Below are positions 11,664 through 54,217 of a stretch of 64,000 nt of DNA, one piece after another (within the stretch, counting starts at the first letter, position 1; each line of letters opens with the position of its first letter). Made by a program: the position numbers and the translations under genes. The stretch spans positions 1 through 64,000 of the forward strand of contig JBFMCO010000028.1 of NCBI GenBank assembly GCA_040754495.1, written 5' to 3'. This DNA is from Candidatus Micrarchaeota archaeon (GTDB lineage Archaea > Micrarchaeota > Micrarchaeia > Anstonellales > Bilamarchaeaceae). Under the pieces are notes generated by a model. That model searched no databases. It saw only the letters and a program-made list of their open reading frames with translations, and was not told the DNA's origin.

Positions 11664-13745
11664 TCACGTAAATTCCCAGCACTCGGGCTCGCCGACAAAG
11701 AACGGCGCGTAGCAGAACTTGGACGCATCCCCGTTTATAATCGCCCATATCTTGCCCGTGCTGCCAGGGCTTGCCGTGATGGTGAAGCCCGTGCCGGAAT
11801 CGTCCGAGTCTCCGAGCGTCACGCCTCCCTCGGGGGACCAGGTGACGTTCGTGCAGGTCTCGTTCGCGTGCTCTCCGCATTTGATGCCCACCCAGCCGTT
11901 GTAGCCGGGGTATACGTTGAGCGGCCCGCTCCCGATTGTGCAGTATTGCGTCGAGCCCTCGTTGCCCGGGTCGCCGCCGGTGGTGTTGTTGCCGCCGCCG
12001 GAGCTTACCTGGACCGAGGAGAAGCACACGGAGCCGAGGATGGGGTCGGGCGCCGCCGCGAATCCGGCAAAGCCCCTTATCTTGCCGCTTGTGGCCCCGC
12101 CCGGAGCGGTGTACGTAGCTCCGGCGACGCTGTCGTTGCCGATGGCGCCGGCAAGGCCGTCTATGAGGTCGTAATCCGCGCTGTCAGGGTCGGTAGGGCT
12201 GCCCGATACGAAGCCGTTCAGCTCGAAGAACTTGGCCTGGTTCAAGGCCATGTTGGCGCTCGGCGGCAGGAGGTCGCACTCGTACGTCGGGTTCGTCACG
12301 GTGATGTTGGAGCCGCAGAGAGCGAGTCCGGACGTGTAGTTCAGCGTGCCATCGGAGCCCGGAGGCGAGGTCGTGTATGCCTGCGCCATGCTGCTGGTCC
12401 TCGTTATGAAATCGCCCGTAAGGCCGACCCAGAACCAGTTGTTGCCGATGCAGGGCGTCGGGTCGGCTGAAAGGTCGAAGCACTGGACTCCGAATTCCGC
12501 GACCTCATTCGTGCCGAGCGTCAGGCTGTCAGGGTCCACGTCGCACGTTATCGGCCCGGTGAGGGGCACGTCCTCGTTGCATGTCGCAGCCCCGCCGCAT
12601 GTGGCCGAGACGGTCTCGGCCTGGAAATTGAGCGTGGTCCCCCCCGAGGCGCCGGCCTGGCGCTCTATGAGGACATAGAGGTCCATGTCGCTTCCGGAGT
12701 TTATCGTGTCATTGAAGTGGTTGTCTGACGGGCACATGGACGGAGGCAGGCCGAGGGTTCCGCAGAGGCCGGACGGGAACGGCTCGACCGTGTATCCCGA
12801 ATTCGAGCTGGTGACCCCGGTCACGCGGATGGGGTCGCCGTCGTTGTGCATCGTCACCCTCACCTTCATCAGGTCCTCGTCGCCGAGCGCGGTCGGGGAG
12901 CTGATGCTGGTCTCGTGCATGTCGCACGTGCCGCCGGAATTCTGGACGTTGATGTTTATCGTGTCCGTGCCCACTGTCGCGGGGACGGCTGGGCCGTTGT
13001 GGGTGAAGAAGTCGAGCCAGAACCACAACGGGTTGTCATCGATGTTGAGCGGGTGCTTCACCACCGAGCCGAAGCACTCCACCCCGGAAAGCCGGCTGGA
13101 TATTGCGTGCGCACCGGCGCTGCCGGCACCGAAGTCCACGTTGCCTGCGCTCGGCATGGCGGAGGAGCCTTTCACGGTCGCGCCGTCAAGGACCTCGAAG
13201 GTTCCCTTGCAGAACACCGCTGCGCCGCCTTCCTTGTTGGCATGGAACTGTCCGGTCACGTTGTTGTAGGTCACCGGCTGGTTCGCGAAATTCGACGGGC
13301 CAAGAGTATTGTAGCGGTTCACGTCCGCCGAGTAGTCGTTCGCGTCGCCGAAAGTCTTCTGGCTGTTCCACGTGGCGGCTGGGAGCCAGCCGATGTTCCG
13401 GTTCTGGGTAACCCCGCCGCTTGGTACCATGGCAGGGCAGAATCCGCCTCCGCAGGTCGGGTAGATTGCGACAGCCGCGAAATCCGGCGTCGCCCACCTT
13501 GAAGTGACCGTCGGCAGGACGCGGAGCGTCGCGCCGGTGCAGACCGTGTCGCCGTTCTGCAGGTTGTTCGGGTCCCCGCTAGACACGTCCCCTGCGATCA
13601 CGCGGAGCGTGAAGTCCGTGGTGAACTGCATGTCGGTGTCGAAATGCCACGTCGGGTCCGAGCCCTGCCAGACCGCGTTGTTCACGTTAGTGGCGAACGA
13701 CGCGGACAAAAGAGCGAACAGCGCGAAAACGGTCTTGTGGTCCAT
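11664..13745 (-). CDS. Secreted Cys-rich surface protein with three C-terminal Ig-like repeats
   Basis: Signal peptide MDHKTVFALFALLSASFA; many Cys; repeats start CDVDPDSLTL, CDLLPPSANM, CTIGSGPLNV. Confidence 0.75.
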   Translation of the reverse strand: MDHKTVFALFALLSASFATNVNNAVWQGSDPTWHFDTDMQFTTDFTLRVIAGDVSSGDPNNLQNGDTVCTGATLRVLPTVTSRWATPDFAAVAIYPTCGGGFCPAMVPSGGVTQNRNIGWLPAATWNSQKTFGDANDYSADVNRYNTLGPSNFANQPVTYNNVTGQFHANKEGGAAVFCKGTFEVLDGATVKGSSAMPSAGNVDFGAGSAGAHAISSRLSGVECFGSVVKHPLNIDDNPLWFWLDFFTHNGPAVPATVGTDTININVQNSGGTCDMHETSISSPTALGDEDLMKVRVTMHNDGDPIRVTGVTSSNSGYTVEPFPSGLCGTLGLPPSMCPSDNHFNDTINSGSDMDLYVLIERQAGASGGTTLNFQAETVSATCGGAATCNEDVPLTGPITCDVDPDSLTLGTNEVAEFGVQCFDLSADPTPCIGNNWFWVGLTGDFITRTSSMAQAYTTSPPGSDGTLNYTSGLALCGSNITVTNPTYECDLLPPSANMALNQAKFFELNGFVSGSPTDPDSADYDLIDGLAGAIGNDSVAGATYTAPGGATSGKIRGFAGFAAAPDPILGSVCFSSVQVSSGGGNNTTGGDPGNEGSTQYCTIGSGPLNVYPGYNGWVGIKCGEHANETCTNVTWSPEGGVTLGDSDDSGTGFTITASPGSTGKIWAIINGDASKFCYAPFFVGEPECWEFT

Positions 13746-13746
13746 C

Positions 13747-15666
13747 CTACCTCTCCCTCCTCTTGCGGGGCACTGCCTCTCCGGAGATGCGCTTCTCGCC
13801 CTCCCCGCCCTTGAACCATGCCCCAGGCGTAATCGTGATGTTGAGCGAACCGTACGGCGAAGCCGGGATGCGCTGCTCCTCGGGCCCGCCGACTTCGCCT
13901 AGATAGCCGCCGCGGACGTCCACCGACACTCCGCGGTCGAACCTGAAGCCGAAGACGCCGAAGCCGTCGAGCGTGTGGCTGCCGGACGAGATGTTGTAGT
14001 CGTACCTGAAGCCCGGGCTGAAGAACAGGGACCAGTTCGGGTTCAGCTGCCATGTGAAGTCGGCCGGCCTGAGCTCGGCACCGACGCGGTGCTGCTCGAG
14101 GAAATACGAGTACTGGGGGGTGATTTCGGAGCGTATCCTCATCGTGTTCCCCTCCATCCAGTTGCCCTCGAAGCTTATGTTCGCGTAAACGTTCGTCGGC
14201 GCGCCCACTATCCCCGCGCCGACCCTGGACATCCTGACCGGGGCGCGCTGGCCCTCGCGGCCCGGGAACCTCACCTCCACGCCGGTCACGCCGAGATACG
14301 CGCCCTGGTCGCCGACCTGCACCCTCTGCGTGGCGCCGGTCTGGTCCGCCACATCCGCGCCTATTTCCCACGCGCGGTAGCCGACGTTGGCATGAAGGAC
14401 GATTTCCATCGGGTTGCCCCATGCGCTCGCGCCTATGCCTATCTGCGGCGTGACGCCGATAACGTGGCCCGTTCCCTCGAGCCTGCGGCTTCCCACCTGG
14501 CGGACGCCTCCGGCTTCGCCTGCGGCGCCCGGAGTTACCTCGAACTGCCGGAGCTGGCCGCTCATGAGCAGGTATTCGTAGTGCAGGCCGAGCGCGAGCC
14601 ACAGCACGCGGGGCTGGAACTCGCTGTCCCTAGAGCCCCGGATGAACTCGGTGAATGCCTCCATGTTCCTGTCGAACTCGTACCTGACCGTGACCCCCGC
14701 CCGCATGACCGCGATGGCACGCTGGTTCACGCTGATGACGTAGAGGTTGTTGAGCTGGCCGTACACCGCGTTCAGGGCCGGCTCCTGCGACAGCTCGGCA
14801 AGGCCGGTGCGCAGGTCGCCGCGCGATAGGGCCGCCATTGCCGCGGCGAAGTGAGGATGCACCGAGGAGTTCCATATCTCCTTGTTGGATGGTATCTGGC
14901 TGAGCGACTGGTGAAGCGCCTGCGCGGCAGCCGTCTGCGCCGCGATATCGTTCGGATGGTTGGTGAGCGTAGCGTACGCGTTGCCGAGCGAGGTCATCGC
15001 GCCGACTGCGTTGCTCTCGCCGCCGAACATGGAGTTCAGGGCCGGGGTGCTGCTCGCGTTTACGGCCACGAGGCTTTCGTTCGCGGAGCTGCTAAGAAGG
15101 TGAATCGGGCCCATGTCGCGGAGCTGCGTCTCGATGAGCGGCAGGGACTGCCTTGTTGCGGCCTGGTCCTCGGCCCTCGGCGCCTGCGCAAGGGCACCGC
15201 CGCGGCTTGTGCGTATGAGGGCCGCTATCTCGGTCCCTATGGTTTCATATGAGGAGTACTGGGCCTCGCCCTGCCCGATGCCCGCATCAATCGGCACGAG
15301 CGTCCTCTCGAGCGGCTGCGCCTGGTCCCCGAGCGTCCCTCCGCCCTGCACGAGCTCGTGCGTGCGGCGGATGGCGGCGATGTGGGAGCGCACGAGGTAC
15401 GCGACCGCGCCGTCGCGGCCGTTCCCCTCGCCGAGCACCCGGATTGCCTCGTCATAGACAGCCCTGCGGGCGTCGCCTTCGGGCGGCCGGTCGCCCCTCA
15501 TGAGCGTGATGAGTTCCCCTATGCGGACCGCGTACTGCGCCTGCGACTGCGCGTTCGGCGCGTTAGTCGGATGTGTCGCGCTCATCGGCCGGCTGAGGTC
15601 GTTTATCAGCGTAATCTGAGGATTCGCAGCTTCTTCCCTTCTTTCCCGAGTCGCAGGTCCGGTCAT
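13747..15666 (-). CDS. Helical N-terminal domain plus predicted transmembrane beta-barrel domain (paralog A)
   Basis: 639 aa; about 13 alternating hydrophobic/polar strands in the C-terminal ~300 aa; clear paralog of 15859-18006; RBS GAGGTGA. Confidence 0.7.
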   Translation of the reverse strand: MTGPATRERREEAANPQITLINDLSRPMSATHPTNAPNAQSQAQYAVRIGELITLMRGDRPPEGDARRAVYDEAIRVLGEGNGRDGAVAYLVRSHIAAIRRTHELVQGGGTLGDQAQPLERTLVPIDAGIGQGEAQYSSYETIGTEIAALIRTSRGGALAQAPRAEDQAATRQSLPLIETQLRDMGPIHLLSSSANESLVAVNASSTPALNSMFGGESNAVGAMTSLGNAYATLTNHPNDIAAQTAAAQALHQSLSQIPSNKEIWNSSVHPHFAAAMAALSRGDLRTGLAELSQEPALNAVYGQLNNLYVISVNQRAIAVMRAGVTVRYEFDRNMEAFTEFIRGSRDSEFQPRVLWLALGLHYEYLLMSGQLRQFEVTPGAAGEAGGVRQVGSRRLEGTGHVIGVTPQIGIGASAWGNPMEIVLHANVGYRAWEIGADVADQTGATQRVQVGDQGAYLGVTGVEVRFPGREGQRAPVRMSRVGAGIVGAPTNVYANISFEGNWMEGNTMRIRSEITPQYSYFLEQHRVGAELRPADFTWQLNPNWSLFFSPGFRYDYNISSGSHTLDGFGVFGFRFDRGVSVDVRGGYLGEVGGPEEQRIPASPYGSLNITITPGAWFKGGEGEKRISGEAVPRKRRER

Positions 15667-15751
15667 AGATTAGTCACCTCAATAATGACGCTTTAACACT
15701 TGGGGCGTGGTTATTAAAAAGATGCCCGGCCCGGAACGTCGGTGCGGCAGG

Positions 15752-15848
15752 GCGAGGGTTTCGGGTCTCCGGTTTCCTGTTTCCGGTTTCCGGTTTCGGG
15801 TTTTGCGCTCCCGGTACGGGGGACTGGAAACCGGATGCTGGCAGCCCG
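15752..15848. repeat. Heptamer repeat element
   Basis: CCGGTTTCCTGTTTCCGGTTTCCGGTTTCGGG ... TGGAAACCGGATGCTGGCAGCCC. Confidence 0.7.
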
Positions 15849-15858
15849 TCCGCCATGC

Positions 15859-18006
15859 TTACCGCCTTTCCCCGCTGTCGGTTCCGAGCCTGACTCCGCC
15901 GCTCACGCTTCCGCTGCTCCCCCAGTACCCTGGCGTGAGCACGAGGTTGAGCGTGCCGGTGACCGAGTCCGGGACGTGGTATGCCTCCTGCCCGAAGCGG
16001 TCCATGAAGTAGCCAACGCGCGCATCAAGGGCGACCCCGCCGGCGTATCTGAAGCTCGCATGCACGTACGGCTCGAAGCTGTGGATGAGGTGCTCGGTGT
16101 TCAGGTCGTACCTCAGCCCCGGGCCGAAGTACCACGTCCAGTTCTGCCCGCTCTGGATGCTGAAGTCTATCGGCCGCAGGTCCGCGCCCACGCGGTGCTG
16201 GAAGAACCATGAGTCGTCGAGCAGCTCCTGCCTCTTCCCCCAGAACAGCATGTAGTGGGGCGTGAGCGAGGTCTCGAGGCGCAGCGCGTTGCCCTCGGTC
16301 CACCTCTGCGACAGCGTGAAATATGCGTAGGGGTTCGTGTTGAACGTGCCGAGGCCCCACCTGCTCAGCCTGAACGAGGACATCCGCCCCTCGTAGCCGA
16401 CCATGGCGACGTCGAAGTTCAGCAGCCCGTATATGCTGCCCTGGTTGACTGAGAGCCTCTCGGCGCTGCCGTTTATGTTCACGGTCTGGTCTATGTTCCA
16501 CCAGAGGTAGCCGAGCCTCCCCGTGAGCGTGGTCTCGACCGGCTGGCTGAACATGCTCCCGCCCCAGGTCACCCCCGCCTGGAGGTCTATGGCATGGCCG
16601 TCGCCTTCGACAGGGCGGGCCGGGCCGCGCGAGACGGCCTGGTTCGTGGCCGGGTCTATGGATACCGTCTGGTCCCGCCCGCTCATGAGCAGCCAGGCGT
16701 AGTTGGCGCCCACGTCATAATGCAGGACGTCCCAGGCATAAGGCCGGTCGGACGTGCCGCGCCGGTATGCCTGGAACTCGGTGATGTTCTCCTGCTCGGG
16801 GAACCTGAGTATGAGGCTGGTGCGGATGCGCGCGAGCGCCCGCTGGCTTATCGTGACCTGGTGGAGGTTGCCGAGGGAGTCGTAAACCGCGTTGAACGCG
16901 ACCTCGCGCCTCAGCGCATCGAGCCCCCCGCGGAGGTCTCCCCTTGAAAGGGCCTGCATGGCCGCTGCGAAGTTCGGGTGAACGCTCTCGTTCCATATCT
17001 CCTTGTCCGAGGGAATCCTGCTGAGTGCCGAGTGGAGCGCCCGTGCCGCATCGGCCTGCGCCGAGAGGTCGCCGGGGCTGTTCATCATCACCGCATACGC
17101 GCTCGCGAGCGTGTTCAGGGATTCCTGCGCAATGGACTCGCCGCCGAAGAGGGAGTTCAGAGCGGGCGTGGACGCGGCGTCGAGCGCCACGAACTGCCTG
17201 TTGCCGAAGCCGCTCAGGAAGAACTGCGAGCCGAAATCGAACGGGAGCATAGCTATGAGCGGGAGCGACGGGTTCGTTACAGCCCGGTCCTGCTGCGTCG
17301 GGTGGTCGGTAATCCTCCCGCCCCTTATGGCGCGGATGAGCTCGGCCACTTCTGAGCTGACCGGGTCCAGCGCCTCGTAATTGCTCTCGCCCATCGCGAC
17401 TCCGCGCTCGATGCGCACGAGCCTCTGCTCGAGGCCGGCGGTCTCTATCCTCGCGTTCTCGTCTGCGGCCACCATGCCGTGCAGCCTGTGAAGCGCGGTC
17501 GAGTACGCGCGGGTCACGGCGTCGAGGGCCGTGCCGCGGTTGTTCCCGTAGAGCGCCATCGCACGGTCGTAAACGGGCCGCCTCGCATCGCCTGATGCCG
17601 GGGGGTTGAGAAGCAGTTCGCGTATGTCGTGCAGCCTGACAAGGTTGACCGAGAGGGCTTCCATCGTCGGCGCGTTCACCGGGTGGGTGATTGCGGTGAC
17701 ATCCCCGGGCAGGGCATTCAGCGTGGTGATGAGCTGGTCGTTCGTCGGCGCGCTGGCAGTAGCTCCGCCATCGGCCCTCTGCACCGCGGCCGGCTGTCTG
17801 GGCGGGGGCGGCTGGGAGGGGCCTCCGTCCTGGGCCAGCGCGTATCCGGGCGCGATGAGGCCGGCGACTGCGAGCGTGCCCGCGACCATGAACTCCCGCG
17901 CTCTCCTCGCGGTCGCTTCAAATCTGGTGGTTCCCCGTGTTTCCTTGTCGTTGATGCCGTTTGTCAGTCTCAAGCCTATCCCCTCCCTCTGCGAATATCC
18001 ATCCAC
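15859..18006 (-). CDS. Exported protein with helical domain plus predicted transmembrane beta-barrel (paralog B)
   Basis: 715 aa; signal-like FMVAGTLAVAGLIAPGYALA/QD; amphipathic strands such as IDLQAGVTW, WYFGPGLRYDL, VALDARVGYF. Confidence 0.7.
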   Translation of the reverse strand: MDGYSQREGIGLRLTNGINDKETRGTTRFEATARRAREFMVAGTLAVAGLIAPGYALAQDGGPSQPPPPRQPAAVQRADGGATASAPTNDQLITTLNALPGDVTAITHPVNAPTMEALSVNLVRLHDIRELLLNPPASGDARRPVYDRAMALYGNNRGTALDAVTRAYSTALHRLHGMVAADENARIETAGLEQRLVRIERGVAMGESNYEALDPVSSEVAELIRAIRGGRITDHPTQQDRAVTNPSLPLIAMLPFDFGSQFFLSGFGNRQFVALDAASTPALNSLFGGESIAQESLNTLASAYAVMMNSPGDLSAQADAARALHSALSRIPSDKEIWNESVHPNFAAAMQALSRGDLRGGLDALRREVAFNAVYDSLGNLHQVTISQRALARIRTSLILRFPEQENITEFQAYRRGTSDRPYAWDVLHYDVGANYAWLLMSGRDQTVSIDPATNQAVSRGPARPVEGDGHAIDLQAGVTWGGSMFSQPVETTLTGRLGYLWWNIDQTVNINGSAERLSVNQGSIYGLLNFDVAMVGYEGRMSSFRLSRWGLGTFNTNPYAYFTLSQRWTEGNALRLETSLTPHYMLFWGKRQELLDDSWFFQHRVGADLRPIDFSIQSGQNWTWYFGPGLRYDLNTEHLIHSFEPYVHASFRYAGGVALDARVGYFMDRFGQEAYHVPDSVTGTLNLVLTPGYWGSSGSVSGGVRLGTDSGERR

Positions 18007-18015
18007 CCTCTAGTA

Positions 18016-21000
18016 TTACTGCCTTGTAGCGCTCGGCCTCACGATGAGCACCGGCGTGGTGTCGCCGTATTCGACGACCGTGTTGGCAGGCGACGCCCTC
18101 TCGAAGCACACGTGCTGCGTGCCAGCCTCGTGGCTCATGCTGCGCTCCAGGCGCGCGTCCCTGATTGGCTCAAGCGTGCCCGCACGAACCTGGTAGAGGA
18201 CGTTCTCTGCCCTCACCCTGCCGTTGTCCTCGAGGACCGGGACCCACTCGGGGCCGGTCGAGGCCGCAAGGCCCGAGCGCCTCACGCGTACGACGAAGTC
18301 GCCCCTCGTGCCGTCGCTGAGCGTAACGCCCCTCATGACCTGGCCGAGGTATCTCGGCGCTCCGGATTCGCGGTACTGCGGGTTCAGGACGTACTGTATG
18401 GGCGAGCCGGACGAATCCGTCGGGCCGAGCACCTGGTACATGAACCAGTAGTATGTGAGGTTCTGCTGGCCGTGCTGCCTCTGGTACGTGTCGAGGTCGA
18501 CCGCGGAGCCGCTCCTGGGCTGTATCATGGTGCGCGTGGCCGAGAACCGGACGCGCCTCGGGTCTCCCGAGAGCCTCTCGACGCTTATTGCGTCCTGAGC
18601 CACGTAAGCGGATATCTCCGGCGTGACCACGGTCGGCCTCGGGATGTCCGTGAGGCGGCCGCCCGTGCCGTCCGTGAGGCTTTCGAGCCCCACCTCGGCC
18701 ACCGCTATGCCAATCCTCGGGTCTACGCGGCCTGCGAAAAGGTCCTGGTCCATGGCCGCTGCGGCGTCCCTGCGGACTCTCTGCGCCTCGGCAAGGGCGG
18801 CCTCTGCCCTAGTAATATATCTTACGCCGGGGGCCGGCCTCCTCTGCGCTCCTGTCCCGGCCACGGTGGACTGCTTGAGGTCCTGCACCCGAATCGGCTG
18901 GCCGTCCGCGAGCACGACGTTGCCGCCGAGCCGGTTGGACAGCTCGGCAATCCGTATGTCGAGGATAGCAAGGAACAGCCGGTTTACCTCGCGCTGCTGC
19001 GCCGCGGCGTCGCGCGAAGAATATGAGACGGATATCTCAGTCATCCGCTCGCCGAGCGCCTGCATGAGCGGCCTGCCGGCCGGAAGCCCGTATTCGCGCG
19101 CGATGCGCTGCATCTCGGTCTTGAGCGCGCGGTCCTGCGCCTCGTACGGAGTGCCCGTCCTTATCGGCCAGGAATCCGGCGCGTTGTTGAGCATGCGCAG
19201 GAGCGACGGCGTCGAATCATCTCCGCGCGTTATCGTCTGCCTGAAGAGCTCGGCGTATGCCTGCCCCCAGCGGTAGTGGTCCATGCCCTCGTGTGCGACG
19301 CTGGCCATGGCCTCATCGCCCGGGTTCTCGCCAGGCACCCAGTGCTGGTCCACCGGGCTGACCGTGGTCCTGCGCCTGCCTGCGAACCGCTCCATGTTCG
19401 GGAATCCGCCGAGCTGGTCCACGGCCGCTATCCTGCCCATCCTGAAATCAAGGGCTCCGAAAGGCCCGGAAAGGCTCCTTCCGGACATTGTGCGCTCGGT
19501 GGCCGAGGGCCCGAAGAGCGTCGCCTCGTCCCTGAGGCTGATGAGAAGCGATATGTGCCTCTGCTCGGCCGCGGCTGCTGCGGAGCGGCGCTCGGCCGAT
19601 GTCGGGTTGGCGGCATCCGCGACGGTCACTTCGGTCGCCGGCGTCCCATATGCGGCCAGCGACGCGAACATCGCCGGGGCCTCGCTCACGGCAAGCGGCC
19701 TCGGCGCGAGCATGTTTATGGCCTCTTCGGCGTAGTTCCTCGAGATGTTCGGGTGGAACGTGCCTGCAAGGTCCGGGTAGTTCAGCAGGAACTGGGCCCT
19801 CGCGCGGCTTATTACGTCGCGGGCTGATGTCAGCGTCGCCGATGGCAGCGATGTGGGGCGCATGCCCGCGTTCGCGACCCAGAGCTCGGCCTCCCTTATC
19901 GTGGAGAGGTTGAGCGCCATCTGGAAGAGCGTATCCGATACGAGAGGTATCTGCGCTGCCGGCGGGGCGGTAGCGGTGGCGGCCAGCCAGGCGTTCGCTG
20001 CCTGTATGAGCGCATCGTCCGCGGCCATGCCCGAGTCGCGCGCGAGCTGGACGGATGTCTCGAGGAATCCCCTGGCCATGGTGAGCCTCTCCTGGCTCTG
20101 CCCGTCCACCGGGACGTATGCAGCGCCGACCCTCCTCGTTCCCATCTGGTACGGGAGATACTCGGTCTCGAAAACAGGCCTCACCGAGCGGAGCCTCGCC
20201 ACATGCTGGACGTAGCCCTCGTTGGAGAGCGGCGCCCTCCTCGATATCTGGTCATAGACGCCGTAGAGGACGTCGTCGTGCACGTACTGCTTGGACTGCA
20301 TGAGGGCCGGAATCACCGCGCGCTCGGCATCCTGCCTCTGCCTGGCCGTGACAGTCGTTCCCGGCGTAAGGCCGAGGTGCAGCTCCACGATTCTCGTGCG
20401 CACCTGCTGGGAATAAGCGTTGTACGGGTTGAACTGCGGGTCGACGAGCGTCATTGAGGCTATGGAGTAGTTCTCCCACATGGGGATGCGGTCGCTCTGG
20501 TCCATGCCGTGGCCGCGGGCGTATTCCCACATGTCCACGAGCGTGTTGACGGTCCTCTCATCAGAGGTAACGGACTGGTAGAGGTCCGCGACCACGCGGA
20601 ACGGAATCCCGGCGGTCTGGCCCGAAAGGGCCCTTGCCTGGGTAAGCCGGACCTGCATGCTAGATTCAAGGTCCTCGCGGCCGTTCCTCTTGCCGTGCGA
20701 TGTGCGCGAATAGGTGCCTGCGCGGACCGAGTCGCGCCTCTCTGCCGCCTGGAGTTCCGCCCTCGTCGGCAGGTGGCTGGAATGAATCCTCGCCACCGCG
20801 CCGTCCGCTATCGGGATGACGCCCTGGTCGAGTATGAGCCGGTAAAACGCCTGCTCCCTCTGGAAGAGCTGCCTGGCTTCTGCTATCTTGCTTGCATCCG
20901 TGCGGCCGGCCTCGAGAAGGGAGAGCATCTGCTCCATGGGCCTCTCGCCGAGCAGCCAGACGCTGGGCAGGAGCTGCGCGATGTCGCGCGCTGCCTGCGT

Positions 21001-22020
21001 CGATGCGTTAGCCGGGTCCTGGACCCACTGCGAGAGCGCGGTGTACCTGTCGTTGAGCGGGTGCGCCCTGGCCTCGGAGACGGTGTAGCCCGCCGTTGTG
21101 GCGCCGGCCTCGAGAGCGCGCCTCCGCGCGTCGACTATCTCGCCGCTGTTTCCGTCGCGGCCGTAGGCGAACCTGCGTGCCTCCGCCACCTTGTCGTCGA
21201 CGCTTCTCTGGCGGATTGGGGTGCGGTCTATCTCGCGGTTGAGCTCGCGGATGAGCCTCCCTGCCCTGTCCCGGACCGTCCTGCTCTGGCCGCTCTGCTG
21301 GATTGCGTTCAGGTCGTCCAGAAGCTGCTGGTTCTGGGTGCGGAGCGTCTCGGCCGTGACGGCCGGAACTACGACCGGCGCAGGCACCACCGTCGGGGCG
21401 GGCTGGGCGGTCTGAGCCGGCTGGGCTGGCTGCGGCGCACCGAGCGTCGGGACTACCACGGCCTGGACTGCGTCCGCTCCACCGCCGCTGAGGGCGATGT
21501 TCGTCCTGAGGAGAAGCTCGGTGAGCACTGCGTCGTTTATTGAGCTGTCCTGGGTCCTGCCGGTGAGTCCGGACCGTGTGCGCCAGGAGGAGTTGAGCCA
21601 GGTGTTGACCGAGCGGAACCTTTCCTGCGGCGTGGTGCCGGTCACTGGGATGCCGAGCCTCTGCGCGTTCGTGGCCAGAGTCTCGATGAGCGTATTGACC
21701 GGAGCGTCGAGCTGGGAAATCTCGGCAGGCACGCCGGCGCGCCTCTTCTCGTCCATGAGCCTGCGAACCGCGTCGAGCTGGGTGACGAGCGTGTCCCTCA
21801 GAGCCTCAGCAGTCCTAACATCCGCCTGCCGCGAATCCTGCGCAGCAGCCTCGCGCATACCCGGTCCAGTCATAGTAGCACCCGCCGTAAAAGCAACAAG
21901 CAGGAATCGCCCGAAATACGACGTCCTGCGCCCGATATGAACATTCCCGGAGTTAGGATTTAAATATTCGCGCTCCCCCCCGACTGAATCTTGAGAATGT
22001 CTAAGCCTCGGTCCACCCAT
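18016..22020 (-). CDS. Giant (about 1334 aa) Arg/Ala/Gln-rich, probably exported helical protein
   Basis: ATG at 22020 with GGGGAGG RBS; signal-like FLLVAFTAGATMTGPGMREAAA/QD; alternative start at 21873 (MTGPG); shares a helical module with the two barrel proteins. Confidence 0.75.
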   Translation of the reverse strand: MGGPRLRHSQDSVGGEREYLNPNSGNVHIGRRTSYFGRFLLVAFTAGATMTGPGMREAAAQDSRQADVRTAEALRDTLVTQLDAVRRLMDEKRRAGVPAEISQLDAPVNTLIETLATNAQRLGIPVTGTTPQERFRSVNTWLNSSWRTRSGLTGRTQDSSINDAVLTELLLRTNIALSGGGADAVQAVVVPTLGAPQPAQPAQTAQPAPTVVPAPVVVPAVTAETLRTQNQQLLDDLNAIQQSGQSRTVRDRAGRLIRELNREIDRTPIRQRSVDDKVAEARRFAYGRDGNSGEIVDARRRALEAGATTAGYTVSEARAHPLNDRYTALSQWVQDPANASTQAARDIAQLLPSVWLLGERPMEQMLSLLEAGRTDASKIAEARQLFQREQAFYRLILDQGVIPIADGAVARIHSSHLPTRAELQAAERRDSVRAGTYSRTSHGKRNGREDLESSMQVRLTQARALSGQTAGIPFRVVADLYQSVTSDERTVNTLVDMWEYARGHGMDQSDRIPMWENYSIASMTLVDPQFNPYNAYSQQVRTRIVELHLGLTPGTTVTARQRQDAERAVIPALMQSKQYVHDDVLYGVYDQISRRAPLSNEGYVQHVARLRSVRPVFETEYLPYQMGTRRVGAAYVPVDGQSQERLTMARGFLETSVQLARDSGMAADDALIQAANAWLAATATAPPAAQIPLVSDTLFQMALNLSTIREAELWVANAGMRPTSLPSATLTSARDVISRARAQFLLNYPDLAGTFHPNISRNYAEEAINMLAPRPLAVSEAPAMFASLAAYGTPATEVTVADAANPTSAERRSAAAAAEQRHISLLISLRDEATLFGPSATERTMSGRSLSGPFGALDFRMGRIAAVDQLGGFPNMERFAGRRRTTVSPVDQHWVPGENPGDEAMASVAHEGMDHYRWGQAYAELFRQTITRGDDSTPSLLRMLNNAPDSWPIRTGTPYEAQDRALKTEMQRIAREYGLPAGRPLMQALGERMTEISVSYSSRDAAAQQREVNRLFLAILDIRIAELSNRLGGNVVLADGQPIRVQDLKQSTVAGTGAQRRPAPGVRYITRAEAALAEAQRVRRDAAAAMDQDLFAGRVDPRIGIAVAEVGLESLTDGTGGRLTDIPRPTVVTPEISAYVAQDAISVERLSGDPRRVRFSATRTMIQPRSGSAVDLDTYQRQHGQQNLTYYWFMYQVLGPTDSSGSPIQYVLNPQYRESGAPRYLGQVMRGVTLSDGTRGDFVVRVRRSGLAASTGPEWVPVLEDNGRVRAENVLYQVRAGTLEPIRDARLERSMSHEAGTQHVCFERASPANTVVEYGDTTPVLIVRPSATRQ

Positions 22021-22230
22021 GTTAAGCAGCCTCCCCTCGTAAACACTGTTGTATATTATTTGAAACACATGGTTTTTAAACCAATCTTTTCCACCGTCGA
22101 TAACTATCCGGGAGCCCTCCCTCCGGTGCCCGGGTGCGGTGATATGGGGGATAATATGCCCGAACATGTATATAAATATTATAGAATTTGGTTGTTTGCG
22201 CCTTTTGAAGAGCAGGGGGCTCCCTAAAAC

Positions 22231-29024: not shown

Positions 29025-29735
29025 CTAGCCGCGCTCGCGCTCCGCCCTGCTTCTCCACCGGACATCTATTCGGCTGATGACATCAAGGTCCGGGGTTTCG
29101 CCCCTGGCGTGCGCGCTGGCGAACTCCCTCTGGATGGCCACGTACGCAGGCCTCGCGGCGGCCATGAACTGGTCCCGGGTAAGCATGACTTCCCTGCCCT
29201 GGGCGTCGGTCGTGGTTATCCGGAAGTCGCTCGGCGCCGCGCTTTCGAGGTAGGTTATGAGCCTGCCGCCCTTCGTCTGGTCCGCGCGCGTCATGGTACC
29301 GCTCCACCTCAGGTCCCGGTTCGCGTCTATGGTATATGTCCGGCCGTCCACCGTGACCTCGTAGGAATGCCTGTGCGTCATGACCGGCGCGGGAGGCGTC
29401 CTGAGGGTGATTTCCGGCGAGATGTTCCGGATGCCGAGGTTCCTGTTGAGAAGCCTGCGGGCCTCGTCGAACCTCTTGTTGAGGCGGTGGTTGAGGATTT
29501 CGTTAAGCCTCGTAGCCACATTCATGAAGTCGCCTTGGGCCATGTAGGGCGGAACTACGACCCCCTCCCTTCCCCTTGCCACCTGGTCGGCGCGGGTGTA
29601 AATCTCACGCGCCTGCAGCGGGGAATATCCGAGCGCCTGCAACTGGGATATAACGGTCCTCTGGACCTCCTGCTGGGTAAGCCCCGTTGTCTCTTCCGCT
29701 CCTCCTCTCCTCCTCTGGGCTGGTGCTCCTGTCAT
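29025..29735 (-). CDS. Arg/Gln-rich hypothetical protein, tandem paralog 1 (MTGAPAQRR)
   Basis: RBS AGGTG; PVMT...YEVTVDGRTY matches the neighbouring paralogs. Confidence 0.75.
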   Translation of the reverse strand: MTGAPAQRRRGGAEETTGLTQQEVQRTVISQLQALGYSPLQAREIYTRADQVARGREGVVVPPYMAQGDFMNVATRLNEILNHRLNKRFDEARRLLNRNLGIRNISPEITLRTPPAPVMTHRHSYEVTVDGRTYTIDANRDLRWSGTMTRADQTKGGRLITYLESAAPSDFRITTTDAQGREVMLTRDQFMAAARPAYVAIQREFASAHARGETPDLDVISRIDVRWRSRAERERG

Positions 29736-29744
29736 AATAACACC

Positions 29745-30401
29745 TCACGGGTTCCTCGTCCGCCTGCCCTGCTGGGGCGCCATGGCGATGCGTATGTCCG
29801 GCCGCTCCACGTACTGGCCGTTCGTGTAGGTCCTTCCGACATAATCGTCGCGGAAGATGTCGAGCCTCTGGTTCGGCGCGCCTGAGTTGAATGCGGCCGA
29901 TTCGGCATCCCTTCCGACGCGCGTAACCTGCGCATACACGACCTGCCCTCCGCTTTCCACGAGCTTGTTGTTGAGGAGGAGGTCGTGGAGGATGGCCCTT
30001 GCGGCAACTTCATCCACCCTGCCGTTCGGCCTTGTCGGGAGGGGGTCCGGAAGGGCGACCTGGTAGGTCCTGTTGCCGAGCGTGACTTCATACACAGTAG
30101 CTTGGGTCATGCGTGGAGCCGGCCTTGGCTGCTGCGTCGGGGCCGGAGGCTGCGCCCTCTGCGGCACGGGCGAGAGCTGGGTGGGCTGCTGGCCGAGCTG
30201 CCGGGCAACCTCCTTCAGGCGCTCGGCTGCCTCCGCAAGGCGCTCGCTCTGCTCCATGAGCCTGCGCGCCTGGCTTGGCGGGATGGGCGAGCGAATCGGC
30301 GACAGGGCGTTTGCGATGTCCATCAGGGCGTCCCTTACCACCCTCAGCGTTCTATCCTGCTCCGTTTCCCGTTCTGGCCTTCTTTGTGCTGGTCCCGTCA
30401 T
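29745..30401 (-). CDS. Arg/Gln-rich hypothetical protein, tandem paralog 2 (MTGPAQRR)
   Basis: RBS AGGTGA; C-terminal region near-identical to paralog 3. Confidence 0.8.
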   Translation of the reverse strand: MTGPAQRRPERETEQDRTLRVVRDALMDIANALSPIRSPIPPSQARRLMEQSERLAEAAERLKEVARQLGQQPTQLSPVPQRAQPPAPTQQPRPAPRMTQATVYEVTLGNRTYQVALPDPLPTRPNGRVDEVAARAILHDLLLNNKLVESGGQVVYAQVTRVGRDAESAAFNSGAPNQRLDIFRDDYVGRTYTNGQYVERPDIRIAMAPQQGRRTRNP

Positions 30402-30410
30402 CAAATCACC

Positions 30411-31025
30411 TTAAGGATTCCTCGTCCGCCTGCCCTGCTGGGGCGCCATGGCGATGCGTATGTCCGGCCGCTCCACGTACTGGCCGTTCGTGTAGGTCCT
30501 TCCGACATAATCGTCGCGGAAGATGTCGAGCCTCTGGTTCGGCGCGCCTGAGTTGAATGCGGCCGATTCGGCATCCCTTCCGACGCGCGTAACCTGCGCA
30601 TACACGGCCTGCCCTCCGCTCTCGACAAGCCTGTTGTTGAGGAGGAGGTCGTGGAGGATGGCCCTTGCGGCCACTTCATCGACCTGGCCGCTGCGGGTGG
30701 TCGGGAGGGCCTGGGGAAGGGCGACCTGGTAGGTCCTGTTCCCGAGGTTGACCTGATAGACGAATGCCTGCGTCATCTGTGGTGCCGGCCTCGGCTGCTG
30801 GACCGGACCGGCCTGCTGGGGCGTCTTCTGCGGCACGGGCGAGGGGCGGCTCAGAAGGTTCTCGATTGTGTTGAGAAGCTCCCGCAGCGCGTCCCTTAAG
30901 CGCTCCAGTACCGGCCTCGGAGGCGGCCTGATTTGCACTTCCTGCCTAAATCTCTCGAGCGCCTCCGGATTGATCGTTATTACATGCTGCTCCGCTTCAG
31001 GTCTTCTTTGTGCGGGTCCAGTCAT
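30411..31025 (-). CDS. Arg/Gln-rich hypothetical protein, tandem paralog 3 (MTGPAQRR)
   Basis: 189-bp identity with paralog 2 at the 3' end; divergent helical N-terminus. Confidence 0.8.
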   Translation of the reverse strand: MTGPAQRRPEAEQHVITINPEALERFRQEVQIRPPPRPVLERLRDALRELLNTIENLLSRPSPVPQKTPQQAGPVQQPRPAPQMTQAFVYQVNLGNRTYQVALPQALPTTRSGQVDEVAARAILHDLLLNNRLVESGGQAVYAQVTRVGRDAESAAFNSGAPNQRLDIFRDDYVGRTYTNGQYVERPDIRIAMAPQQGRRTRNP

Positions 31026-31088
31026 AATATCACACAAAATGTATATTCGAAGAGAAGATTTTTTAACAGGCTTAGTATCAGATATGAT

Positions 31089-50139: not shown

Positions 50140-50982
50140 TCAGGCAGGCTTTGGCGGAGGCTCCTCTCCGTCCCAGACGCTCCAGTCATAAATTGCATTC
50201 ACCGGTATCCCTCCACGGACCATGAAGGTTTTTCCGTATTCGCATCTGACGCCCATGCATTCCGGGTCGGCGAAAATGCTCCTGCTTTCCATTAGCCTTG
50301 GAACGTCTATATGGAACCGCACCTGCACCTCCCCGGTTCCATAAACCGAACCCCCCATGTCCCCGGCATCCTCCTCGTATTTCTTCAGGTACATGAACGA
50401 TTTTGCCGGTTCGGTAATTGCCGGGTTGATTATTACGCCCCCTTCAAGGGCGCTTATGAAACTGCGGAAAGATGAGCGGTCGGGGCGCAGGTGGCCGTCG
50501 AAAGCGAATGCCGCCCGGTCATGGTTCAGGAAGCGGTCGGGAAGCGAGAGCGGAACCAGGTGGACAAGATAGGACGACTCGGCATCCATATAGTCTTCCA
50601 CGCTCGGGGGGCCTGCCTGTCCCGGGCGCCTGCTCATCAGGGCTTCTTCATACGCCCGCTTCCACCTGCGCATCTCTGCCAGCACTTTTTCCCTGAATTC
50701 CGGCGGAACCGCGTCTATCAGCCTGTATTCGTAGATAATCCCCAGGCGTGCGGCCTCTTCCCTCCGCCTTTCTATGAAACCATATGAGAAGAGGGTCTCA
50801 GAATCCGATTCATCGAAAGAATCCCATGGCATGCATTGCCGGTACGGATAAGCGAACTCAGGCAGGCTGACTTTTTCCGGCTTTATCGGGTCCGGCTGGA
50901 CCTTGTGCCTGTTTTCAAGTACCCTCGAAAGGGCGGTTTTTACCTCCCTCCGAAGAGCTGCTTCCCGCTGTCTGCCATACAT
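50140..50982 (-). CDS. Hypothetical protein
   Basis: 280-aa ORF convergent on korB. Confidence 0.55.
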   Translation of the reverse strand: MYGRQREAALRREVKTALSRVLENRHKVQPDPIKPEKVSLPEFAYPYRQCMPWDSFDESDSETLFSYGFIERRREEAARLGIIYEYRLIDAVPPEFREKVLAEMRRWKRAYEEALMSRRPGQAGPPSVEDYMDAESSYLVHLVPLSLPDRFLNHDRAAFAFDGHLRPDRSSFRSFISALEGGVIINPAITEPAKSFMYLKKYEEDAGDMGGSVYGTGEVQVRFHIDVPRLMESRSIFADPECMGVRCEYGKTFMVRGGIPVNAIYDWSVWDGEEPPPKPA

Positions 50983-51079
50983 ATTGTTATATTTAATGGT
51001 AAAATATTATAAATCAACCCATAACAGCGCCTGCGGCAATAAGCAGGATAAAATAGTTATCGGGGGCAGAACCATTATC

Positions 51080-54000
51080 GTGCAACTAGTCCCGCGGGCG
51101 TACCAGCTCTCAATCTACGAGTCCATCAACAGGCACGGCAACACGCTAGTCGTACTGCCGACTGGCCTTGGCAAGACGCTGATCGCCCTCATGCTCATCC
51201 GGGACAGGATGAAAACCGGGAGGTGCCTTTTCCTCACGCCGACAAAGCCCCTTGCGAAGCAGCACCAGCATTCTGTCATGAAGACCCTGGAGCTGCCGGA
51301 CAAGAACGTCGTGCTTGTTACCGGCGAGGTGAGCCCGAAGAAGCGCAAGGAGATGTACCTTACCGATGTGATTGTGAGCACCCCGCAGACGATAAAGAAC
51401 GACCTTGAGAACGGCGTGCTCGAGCCGAAATTCTCCCTTGTCATATTCGACGAGTGCGTAGCTGCTGATACGAAGGTTTTGTTAGCAGATGGCTCGATGG
51501 CTCCGATATGGAGGATAGTTAAGGAAAGAAAGCCGGTTTGGGTGAACTCGTATAATGAAAAAAGCGGGAGAATAGAGCCGAAAGAGGTCATAGGTTTCCA
51601 TCGTATCCCCTGCAAAAAGAATTTTGTCAGGGTTGAGGCCGGCGATACGCTCGTAGATTGTACCGAGGACCACCTTTTTTTATGCCAAAGCGTGGACGGG
51701 GTCGAATGGAAAAAAGCATCCGAATTGGACGGGGGGACTTCAGTCCTTGTACAGGAGGCATTCCAGGGGAAAGGAGGGGGTGTAAAGATCTCTTCCGCAC
51801 CACTAGTCAGCGAGGCGGCTATAAAAAGCACCTACACAGGCAACTGGAACCGGGCCAAACAACATTTTTATAGAACTATTGAAAAATTGCAAAAAGCAGG
51901 GATATTTCCTTTCACATACCAAAATCCGAATTGCCTGACCATGGCTAGGCTTTTTGGCTATGCACTTGGCGACGGGTGGCTGACCAAAAAGAATGGGCAG
52001 GCCACATATTTAGGTTTCTGCGGGCCGACGGATGATTTAAGGCTCGTTGCGGAAGACCTGGATTCCCTTGATAGCCGATACTCAAACATAAGCAGCAGAA
52101 TGACAAACTCGCTGGTATCAGGCCCATACGGGGATGTGACGATAAGGGGACGCTCCGAAAGCTTCCTCTGCGCTTCACCACACATTGTCCGAATTACTTA
52201 CGCTCTTGGCTTCCCTGTGGGGGATAAGGCAAAAACAGAGTTCGCATTGCCTAATTGGTTAATGAATGCGCCATCCCCGGTAGCACGTGCGTTTCTCTCT
52301 GGATTGATATCAGCCGAATGTCATGTGCCCACACCAAGAGGAAACGGACGGACAATCTTCGCAAGCAAATTAGCATTCTATAAAGATAAAAAACTCGAGA
52401 CGAACGGTAGAATATATGCGAGGGACCTGGTGGCTTTGTTTAAAAAAGTAGGCGTCAGGGCAGTTTATGCGATAAGAAAAGGGAATAAAAGAAAAGATAA
52501 AACAGAAACCTTGAAGTTTGAGATAACAATTGGAAACTCTCTTTCGAACCAGCTTGCATTCCTAGGCAATGTCCCTTTTGCATATTCGAAGAGAAAATCC
52601 TCAAAAGCAGGTTCCATACTTGCCTACTTGCAAATGAAAAGGGAGGCGCTTTGTGAGAGGGAGCGCTACTGGAAAGCCAGTAAAAAACTGCACGCCAGTG
52701 GTTTGAGTGCCAGTAAGATATCAAAAAAACTCGGAATAGCAGCGCATACAATTGAATCATGGTTATACTTGGGAAGGAAACCCACCCAGACAAGCATATT
52801 GGTTCCCTCCTTCAACGAGTGGATTAGCCATAATCGCGACAATAGCGCAGCTTCTTTTCCACGGCTGCAGGTAAAGAAAGTAACGAAGATAAAGAGACCA
52901 AAATACGTATATGACCTGAGTGTCAGGGACAATCATAATTATTTTGCCAACAATGTCCTGGTTCACAACTGCCATCGTGCAGTAGGAGACTACGCGTATA
53001 CAATCGTAGCGGAGAAGACGCGCGGGCCGGAGACGCTCTTCGTCGGCCTCACCGCCTCCCCGGGAGGGCAGATGGACCGCATACGGGAGGTCATGAAGGC
53101 CCTTTCCATCGAGAACGTGGAGATAAGGGGCCACGACGACCCGGACGTCGCGCCGTACGTGCAGAAGAGCACGGTGAGCTGGGTGCCGGTGCCCCTTTCG
53201 GACCATTTCAAGGACATAAAGAGGGAGCTCGACCCGCTCGCATCCAAATACGCCGAGCGCCTCGCCTCGATGGGATTCCCGCCGCCCCTCAAGCACAAGG
53301 GCAAGTTCATGCAGCTGCGCGAGCGCATCCTGAACATCCCGCACAACATCAAATATCCGGCGCTCGTCGCCTATTCGGTCCTCCTGCATCTCTTGCACAT
53401 GACCGAGCTGCTCGAGACGCAGGGCGTCTATCCCCTGCGCGACTATTTGAAGAAGCTGGAGGAAAAAGACAGCAAGTCGGCCAGGCTCCTGCTCCACGAG
53501 CCTGGCCTCGCGCGCATCAGGGCTCTTTGCCAGAAGGATGAGGACCACCCGAAGATGCCCGTCCTCATCGACATGGTGAAGAAGCTTTCTGGGAAGAAGA
53601 TGATTGTCTTCGTGCAATACCGCTCGCAGATTGCCAGGATTGAGGAGGTCCTTAATTCGAGCGGCGTGAGCGCGAAGCGCTTTGTCGGCAAGAAGGACGG
53701 CGTCACGAAAAAGATGCAGGAGGAGACCATCGCGGATTTCCGGGAGGGGAAGTTCGACGTCCTCGTCGCTTCGAGCATAGGGGAGGAAGGGCTGGACATA
53801 CCGGCCGTGGATGCCGTGATATTCTACGAGCCTGTCCCGAGCGAAATCCGCAGCATACAGAGGCGCGGGAGGGCAGCGAGGCTGAAGGAAGGGCAGATAA
53901 TCGTGCTCATGACCAAGGGCACGAGGGATGAGTACTACTATTACGCGGCGAACAACCGCGAGAAGAGGATGAAGAAAATCCTCGGCGGCATGCAGAGGGC

Positions 54001-54217
54001 GAAGAAGAAGCCGGGATTCGAGAGGGCGGATGCGCTTTCGAAGGATTCGGAGAGCGATGCGCAGCCCCGGGTGCCGGAGCCGGGAGGGCTGAAAGCGGAG
54101 GCTGGAAACCCGGAACCGGAAACCATAGGGCGGAAGCCGCCCTTAACCGTGGGGCCGGGGGCGGCGGCAGGAAAACGCAAGCAGCCCCCGAAACAGACGA
54201 AGATGACCGATTTTTAA
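51080..54217 (+). CDS. hef: Hef/FANCM-like DEAH helicase with intein, no ERCC4 nuclease domain, C-terminal PIP box
   Basis: PTGLGKT, PTKPLAKQH, DE[intein]CH, GLTASPG, SIGEEGLDIP, QRRGRAAR; ends QTKMTDF. Confidence 0.9.
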   Translation: MQLVPRAYQLSIYESINRHGNTLVVLPTGLGKTLIALMLIRDRMKTGRCLFLTPTKPLAKQHQHSVMKTLELPDKNVVLVTGEVSPKKRKEMYLTDVIVSTPQTIKNDLENGVLEPKFSLVIFDECVAADTKVLLADGSMAPIWRIVKERKPVWVNSYNEKSGRIEPKEVIGFHRIPCKKNFVRVEAGDTLVDCTEDHLFLCQSVDGVEWKKASELDGGTSVLVQEAFQGKGGGVKISSAPLVSEAAIKSTYTGNWNRAKQHFYRTIEKLQKAGIFPFTYQNPNCLTMARLFGYALGDGWLTKKNGQATYLGFCGPTDDLRLVAEDLDSLDSRYSNISSRMTNSLVSGPYGDVTIRGRSESFLCASPHIVRITYALGFPVGDKAKTEFALPNWLMNAPSPVARAFLSGLISAECHVPTPRGNGRTIFASKLAFYKDKKLETNGRIYARDLVALFKKVGVRAVYAIRKGNKRKDKTETLKFEITIGNSLSNQLAFLGNVPFAYSKRKSSKAGSILAYLQMKREALCERERYWKASKKLHASGLSASKISKKLGIAAHTIESWLYLGRKPTQTSILVPSFNEWISHNRDNSAASFPRLQVKKVTKIKRPKYVYDLSVRDNHNYFANNVLVHNCHRAVGDYAYTIVAEKTRGPETLFVGLTASPGGQMDRIREVMKALSIENVEIRGHDDPDVAPYVQKSTVSWVPVPLSDHFKDIKRELDPLASKYAERLASMGFPPPLKHKGKFMQLRERILNIPHNIKYPALVAYSVLLHLLHMTELLETQGVYPLRDYLKKLEEKDSKSARLLLHEPGLARIRALCQKDEDHPKMPVLIDMVKKLSGKKMIVFVQYRSQIARIEEVLNSSGVSAKRFVGKKDGVTKKMQEETIADFREGKFDVLVASSIGEEGLDIPAVDAVIFYEPVPSEIRSIQRRGRAARLKEGQIIVLMTKGTRDEYYYYAANNREKRMKKILGGMQRAKKKPGFERADALSKDSESDAQPRVPEPGGLKAEAGNPEPETIGRKPPLTVGPGAAAGKRKQPPKQTKMTDF
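51455..52969 (+). mobile_element. 505-aa intein with LAGLIDADG homing endonuclease in Hef Walker B
   Basis: Starts CVAADTKVLLADG, ends VLVHN before C; LFGYALGDG and LSGLISAEC motifs; visibly more AT-rich than the host gene. Confidence 0.95.

Follow-up and report, generated by a model that had tools for sequence, protein, structure and literature searches.

Two neighbouring genes of a Candidatus Micrarchaeota archaeon encode paralogous proteins whose C-terminal domains very probably adopt the closed barrel fold of outer-membrane (OM) proteins. The genes, here called A and B, lie on the minus strand at positions 13747-18006 of the 64,000-nucleotide stretch of contig JBFMCO010000028.1 that was analysed (the window). 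Structure prediction and comparison established the fold, the paralogy, the amphipathic pattern of the strands, the operon, the restriction to one clade and the lack of both Omp85 and sequence relatives. A and B are a real, novel archaeal barrel family, i.e., a known kind of protein in a new family and in an unexpected domain of life. To our knowledge, closed barrels of this kind had previously been described solely in outer membranes, those of bacteria, mitochondria and chloroplasts. The reading that we favor, with a probability of roughly 50%, is that both proteins are barrels inserted into an outer lipid layer that belongs to the envelope of the symbiont itself, where they would form a plugged channel or an anchor with the products of two adjacent genes, C and D. 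The features of A and B are as follows.

13747..15666, minus strand: gene A, 639 amino acids, paralogue of B without signal peptide, starting MTGPATRERRE
13816..14745, minus strand: barrel domain of A, residues 308-617, homologous to B 381-695
15859..18006, minus strand: gene B, 715 amino acids, with signal peptide, Pro-rich linker, helical domain, beta-barrel and short tail
17833..18006, minus strand: signal region of B, residues 1-58, with RRAREF n-region, h-region and a site between YALA and QD
16867..17742, minus strand: helical domain of B, residues 89-380, from DSSP analysis of the AlphaFold2 model
15922..16866, minus strand: barrel domain of B, residues 381-695, predicted closed 12-14-stranded antiparallel beta-barrel

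Predicted fold of A and B

A first-pass annotation of the sequence had described two paralogous proteins here, and the two minus-strand open reading frames (ORFs) are indeed 39% identical across 613 residues (E 1e-140). BLASTP places their barrels in the same register, with A317 aligned to B390 and A617 to B695, and the conserved columns are the same in both. The strand motifs quoted in that annotation are all present in A and B.

We ran AlphaFold2 on B with an alignment of 71 homologues. The model has a mean predicted local distance difference test (pLDDT) score of 86.2 and a predicted template-modelling (pTM) score of 0.70; the barrel blocks mostly exceed 90, and the low-confidence stretches are residues 1-25, 43-80 and the final 15. 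A helix at residues 26-50, corresponding to the signal peptide, is followed by a Pro-rich disordered linker and by the helical domain at residues 89-380. The latter is interrupted at about residues 245-285 by an extended segment (LPLI...FGG), the most conserved of the protein. Thirteen strands follow between residues 381 and 690. The count of about 13 or more alternating strands made from the sequence thus stands, with the alternation kept in the 71 homologues, but five strands, at 22-30 residues, are long rather than short.

The 50 solved structures nearest to the B model are all bacterial OM barrels, with no soluble barrel among them. BrkA (3qq2) scored highest at 15.8, with a root-mean-square deviation (rmsd) of 3.2 Å and 213 of 245 residues superposed. 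The COG4313 channel (15.2), AIDA-I (15.0), NalP (15.0), FapF (14.5), CymA (14.3), TodX (14.0), OmpG (13.5) and KdgM (13.2, rmsd 2.7 Å) also scored highly. Near-complete superposition at approximately 3 Å on a closed 12-stranded barrel rules out an open sheet or a sandwich, so that the OM-type barrel anticipated by the first-pass annotation is borne out at the level of structure prediction. Barrels that we take to have 12 strands align from B residue 428 and those that we take to have 14 from about residue 390, which places 12-14 wall strands in the model. As in bacterial-type OM barrels, the predicted barrel is closed, formed by a single chain and antiparallel with all strands paired to their next neighbors. 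Foldseek and a shape search of the ESM Atlas also returned mainly bacterial OM barrels, with low template-modelling (TM) scores, and the Foldseek rows include Vip3 toxins and lyases.

Sequence searches gave no comparable relatives. Neither Pfam nor NCBIfam matched any family in A, B, C or D, and a profile built from the 71 sequences found no match among all PDB sequences at E up to 10. In A and B, the autotransporter domain PF03797 and tetratricopeptide repeat (TPR) families were not detected with Pfam, and the NCBIfam search revealed no surface-layer (S-layer) domain of TIGR01564 or TIGR01567 in A-D.

The comparison with known systems is therefore one of fold. Type Va autotransporters (BrkA 3qq2, NalP 1uyo, AIDA-I 4mee, EstA 3kvn) match A and B in barrel geometry alone. 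A and B share no sequence similarity with them, lack PF03797 and the terminal aromatic beta-signal, and carry a helical N-terminal domain rather than a beta-helix passenger; moreover, BamA was not found in the organism, and A has no signal peptide. With FadL, TodX, COG4313 and FapF, the alignment with B begins at about residue 250, at the N-terminal part of those proteins. In contrast to FadL/TodX and the COG4313 channels, which handle hydrophobic substrates, and to FapF, B has a helical stretch of about 100 residues separating its putative plug segment from the barrel, and there is no sequence relation. The exopolysaccharide exporters BcsC, PelB and PgaA combine TPRs with barrels of 16-18 strands and sit in polysaccharide synthase operons, whereas A and B have no detected TPR family and the A-D cluster contains no synthase. 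Beta pore-forming toxins build their barrel from hairpins of many protomers, whereas a single A or B chain would supply 12-14 strands and closes on itself in the model. Relative to bacterial OM proteins at large, A and B agree in fold and differ in the absence of a beta-signal, of an Omp85 protein in the organism and of a common sequence family. The OM pore protein of the archaeon Ignicoccus is a small helical protein.

Amphipathic pattern of the barrel wall

The alternation of hydrophobic and polar residues is kept column by column across the 71 homologues. In strands 2-13, five to seven alternate positions per strand are hydrophobic in 70-99% of the sequences, and Tyr, Trp or Phe residues concentrate at both strand ends. 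The hydrophobic face comprises Leu (21%), Val (14%), Phe (14%), Tyr (12%), Ile (11%), Ala (8%) and Trp (5%). The opposite face, with Gly (19%), Arg (12%), Ser (10%), Thr (10%) and Glu (9%), is rich in conserved Gly, Arg and Glu/Asp residues.

We used the helical domain of the same proteins as an internal control for column conservation. In that domain, the hydrophobic columns (entropy 1.84 bits) are far better conserved than the polar ones (2.86 bits; p = 3e-16), as in soluble proteins, and aromatic residues make up 14.4% of the hydrophobic positions. In the barrel, the entropy is 2.44 bits for the hydrophobic columns and 2.41 bits for the polar ones (2.11 when Gly/Pro columns are included), and the aromatic share is 30.6%. 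The hydrophobic face of the barrel is thus much more variable than the helical core and no better conserved than the polar face. Interchangeable, aromatic-rich hydrophobic residues on one side and a constrained polar face on the other fit lipid-exposed and lumen-facing residues, respectively, and provide good indirect evidence for such an arrangement.

Distribution, gene order and further barrel candidates

The 71-sequence profile was run against 301 genomes sampled across the phylum. The A/B family occurs in 27 of them, all from one family-level clade. With the genome of the window excluded, 26 of the 65 clade genomes carry it, including 21 of the 22 in the same genus, and it was found in none of 235 genomes from 29 other families. 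A search of 5.8 billion clustered proteins yielded 34 relatives of A, and every source name given for these is Micrarchaeota or Micrarchaeia. In an exhaustive HMMER scan covering 1.84 billion representative proteins, B had no more than 55 relatives. D has 38 homologues; those with a source name come from Micrarchaeota-type archaea except for one short contig labelled Thaumarchaeota. All homologues with a source name are archaeal, nearly all of them Micrarchaeota.

The other features of the cluster are as follows.

18016..22167, minus strand: gene C, 1383-amino-acid ORFan with a signal-like N terminus, heading the conserved cluster
15667..15858, no strand assigned: B-A spacer, 192 nucleotides
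11664..13745, minus strand: gene D, 693-amino-acid secreted ORFan, acidic, rich in Cys, Thr and Gly, with a classical signal peptide

A-D form a co-oriented four-gene block. C lies upstream of B with a gap of 9 nucleotides, and the ATG of D is one base past the stop codon of A. The reading frame of A has an in-frame stop one codon upstream of its ATG, the open frame being 640 codons long, and a 60-amino-acid ORF within the B-A spacer (15667-15858) bears no resemblance to a signal peptide. Two Micrarchaeota contigs, of 302 kb and 195 kb, carry C, a small ORF, A and D in this order, followed on the opposite strand by a beta-CASP nuclease gene; the gene order of the window matches theirs, including the beta-CASP gene. 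Orthologues of C of 1283 and 1335 residues occupy the same position at two other loci (L001 and L003), and A-type and D-type genes have consecutive locus tags in five named metagenome-assembled genomes. This conservation of gene order on large Micrarchaeota contigs, together with the archaeal names of the homologues, shows that the contig is not chimeric, an eventuality that the first-pass annotation had raised, and that the cluster is chromosomal and conserved. The single tRNA detected by ARAGORN is uninformative on provenance.

The G+C content of the cluster is 0.64-0.67, compared with about 0.60 in the flanks, owing to its Ala/Gly/Arg-rich, Lys-poor composition. Lys makes up 0.4-0.7% of A, B and C (genome median, 4.6%) and Arg 8-11%. 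Similar Lys depletion is found in giant proteins of the 1.6-Mb genome (G000), such as one of 6147 residues on contig C42 and one of 2828 residues on contig C16, and in two (29745-31037) of three tandem tagged ORFs of the window. Three open frames of 6147-6841 codons are present in this genome (C22 20178-40703; C42 3466-21909 and 26751-46709).

Further candidates were picked by a crude genome scan for amphipathic strands, in which B ranked third. As evidence for barrels the scan was rejected, since a helicase, tRNA synthetases and an antisense ORF (L017) were among its hits as well. A giant protein with a barrel-like C terminus is another flagged protein of the genome. Two candidates are described here.

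G000:C17:3745-5982: L010, 745 amino acids, with signal peptide, central amphipathic-strand region and weak transglutaminase-like C-terminal domain
G000:C40:26524-28095: L015, 523 amino acids, exported, with signal peptide

A model of L010 residues 200-520 has a pLDDT of 90.2, a pTM of 0.84 and about 15 strands. L010 has 70 homologues, and those that are named come almost all from Micrarchaeota-type archaea, with one metagenome-assembled genome labelled only "bacterium". A profile of this protein matched 32 of the 65 genomes of the A/B clade and none of 235 elsewhere, the same restriction as that of A and B. That two unrelated families of OM-type barrels, both predicted with confidence, share this restriction speaks for a resident lipid layer housing them rather than for a single odd protein. 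L015, whose low-confidence ESM Atlas model resembles barrels of the TonB-dependent-receptor type (TM 0.52-0.59), was not found in other genomes of the family with a single-protein query.

Export, membrane location and rival explanations

The N terminus of B consists of a long basic n-region (RRAREF), a hydrophobic h-region and the cleavage-type site YALA/QD. The signal segment is the only hydrophobic segment of B (Kyte-Doolittle value of 1.75 at residue 39, 19-residue window), and the arrangement is kept in the B-type homologues P0033, P0034 and P0019. It is probably a Sec-type signal peptide. The two Arg residues were considered as a mark of the twin-arginine translocation (Tat) pathway, but this was not adopted because a search of the genome found no TatC. 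Signal peptides are present in C and D as well.

A and its orthologues start with a conserved polar tag (MAQ.AQRR or MGG.AQ.E; here MTGPATRERRE), which may be a sorting or export tag. Tags of this type (MTGPAQRR, MTGPATRERRE, MTGAPAQRRR) head at least eight otherwise unrelated ORFs without signal peptides, A included. They were observed at 13747-15666, 29025-31037 and 18016-22167 of the window and on contigs C14, C19, C41, C42 and C49 of G000. Three tandem tagged genes at 29025-31037 have relatives at L003 that also begin MAQ..RR, and one of the three giant frames on C22 and C42, itself Lys depleted, starts with MAQTQR... In genomes with a single barrel gene, an ORF of 51-55 codons lies just upstream of A (L001:9823-9990, L003:9767-9922); its product begins with basic residues, contains a single hydrophobic helix and ends in a conserved PIPLxFT motif. 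We considered that this signal-like ORF might be joined to A by read-through or frameshifting and rejected the idea. The ORF is in frame with A at L003 and in another frame at L001, indicating that its product is a small membrane protein in its own right rather than part of a split signal peptide.

In the reading that we favor, A and B would be lineage-specific envelope proteins, each made up of a helical domain of the soluble type (about 290 residues) and a monomeric closed barrel (12-14 strands, about 310 residues). B would be exported via its Sec-type signal peptide. The barrel would insert into a lipid layer exterior to the cytoplasmic membrane by means of a hydrophobic belt of 9-13 residues with Tyr/Trp/Phe girdles on each strand, and the Gly/Arg/Ser/Thr/Glu-rich face would line a lumen perhaps plugged by the conserved LPLI...FGG segment. 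With the co-transcribed and secreted C, which is giant and mostly helical, and D, which is Cys rich and adhesin-like, the barrels might form the channel or anchor of a cell-surface apparatus, assembled without Omp85/BamA. We infer membrane insertion, the membrane concerned, channel function and the partnership with C and D from the predicted fold and its context. A pore or OM role is plausible on the models, which suggest that the lineage has a second membrane or else pierces that of its host. Among archaea, ARMAN, Ignicoccus and Altiarchaeum have been listed as having two membranes (PMC8871954). The genus name Bilamarchaeum was considered as a reference to two layers and set aside, since it refers to a turtle. 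The full-text literature searched, which left many subscription journals outside, contained no beta-barrel OM protein from Micrarchaeota or other archaea.

Several observations weigh against an OM location. The double membrane of ARMAN cells, invoked by the first-pass annotation, has been reported but is disputed: in the cultivated Micrarchaeum harzensis, an S-layer was found by freeze-etching and proteomics, and the two-membrane reading was questioned (10.1101/2021.04.28.441871). Cryo-tomography of Micrarchaeote ARM-1 showed an S-layer and, beneath it, a 21-nm barrel-shaped complex docking host nanotubes (PMC11329633). Cultivated Micrarchaeota are thus seen with one membrane beneath an S-layer, although either organism may lie outside the A/B-carrying clade. 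In the genome of the window, a weak, sub-threshold S-layer match (C-terminal part of the Methanococcales-type family TIGR01564, E 3.6e-4, 19 bits) is located at G000:C39:2016-2195. It sits in a 534-codon open frame, possibly that of an S-layer protein. Neither a Sec nor a Tat signal is present in A, and most of its orthologues lack one too. As noted from the sequence at the outset, A and B both lack the terminal aromatic beta-signal, the last strand being followed by TPGxW and a tail of 20-22 residues with a basic end. The expectation that BamA would be missing was confirmed as well: Omp85/BamA (PF01103) was not found in the genome of the window, which is 80% complete, or in 30 congeneric genomes, whereas seven diderm controls were matched. 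With neither Omp85 nor a beta-signal, no known insertion route applies. That the hydrophobic face points outward is deduced from sequence statistics, and without Gly/Pro-dominated columns, the polar face equals it in conservation and does not surpass it. Finally, restriction to one family-level clade makes A and B uninformative on Micrarchaeota or DPANN generally.

The best surviving alternative, which we consider unlikely, is that the barrel does not reside in lipid. It might be soluble or embedded in the S-layer, its hydrophobic face packing on a plug or on partners such as C, D or the S-layer, or it might bind lipid internally for scavenging. The missing signal peptide of A means that at least one paralogue may stay cytoplasmic, the hydrophobic and strongly conserved segment 245-285 of B could fill the barrel, and cultivated Micrarchaeota have S-layers (10.1101/2021.04.28.441871). 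Lipid-trapping, porin-like barrels are known from bacteria (PMC12228718). However, the hydrophobic face varies like a lipid-exposed surface, unlike the conserved core of the helical domain; it has twice the aromatic share of that core, with Tyr and Trp at both strand ends. In addition, the polar face is lumen-like in its conserved Arg, Glu, Asp and Gly residues, and soluble barrels are absent from the 50 nearest structures.

Slightly less probable again is that the barrels are delivered to the host archaeon and inserted into its membrane, where they would serve the uptake of metabolites or lipids as pore-forming factors or contact channels, instead of residing in an outer membrane of the symbiont. 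Micrarchaeota are host-dependent ectosymbionts, with cytoplasmic bridges and envelope complexes imaged at the contact site (PMC11329633). The non-classical tag of A, common to other, mostly Lys-depleted proteins, could mark a dedicated export route, and the cluster encodes the adhesin-like secreted D. However, known pore-forming toxins are assembled from hairpins of many subunits, and the single-chain barrel of A or B would be insoluble in transit. Moreover, the signal peptide of B is ordinary, and the second barrel family, which has a fused enzyme domain and is widespread in the clade, has the character of a protein resident in the envelope.

It is very improbable that the barrel is a prediction artefact or that the genes are bacterial contamination or a recently transferred bacterial OM protein gene. 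Although the whole case rests on structure prediction and the cluster is richer in G+C than its flanks, two unrelated families give pLDDT values of 86-90 from 70-sequence alignments, conservation of the dyad pattern does not depend on the model, the G+C content is explained by composition, Micrarchaeota contigs of 195-302 kb keep the gene order with the beta-CASP gene alongside, and the 55 relatives among 1.84 billion representatives come with no sequence match to bacterial OM protein families.

Diderm bacteria and the organelles derived from them are held to be distinguished by integral beta-barrel membrane proteins, whose insertion is regarded as Omp85 dependent. Tentatively, and with less confidence than for A and B themselves, we propose that a true outer membrane exists in one family-level clade of Micrarchaeota and that it contains bacterial-type barrels from at least two or three unrelated families. 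These would be of independent origin or diverged beyond recognition and inserted without Omp85/BamA. If true, this would represent the first beta-barrel OM proteome in Archaea. It bears on whether some DPANN archaea have two membranes, which is disputed for Micrarchaeota and for which the A/B genes could serve as markers. It also bears on barrel assembly without the beta-barrel assembly machinery (BAM) and in ether-lipid membranes, and on material exchange between genome-reduced symbionts and their hosts.

Elsewhere in the window, positions 50903-54217 encode a DEAD/ResIII helicase of 1104 amino acids that is interrupted by an intein (Intein_splicing match, residues 194-689).

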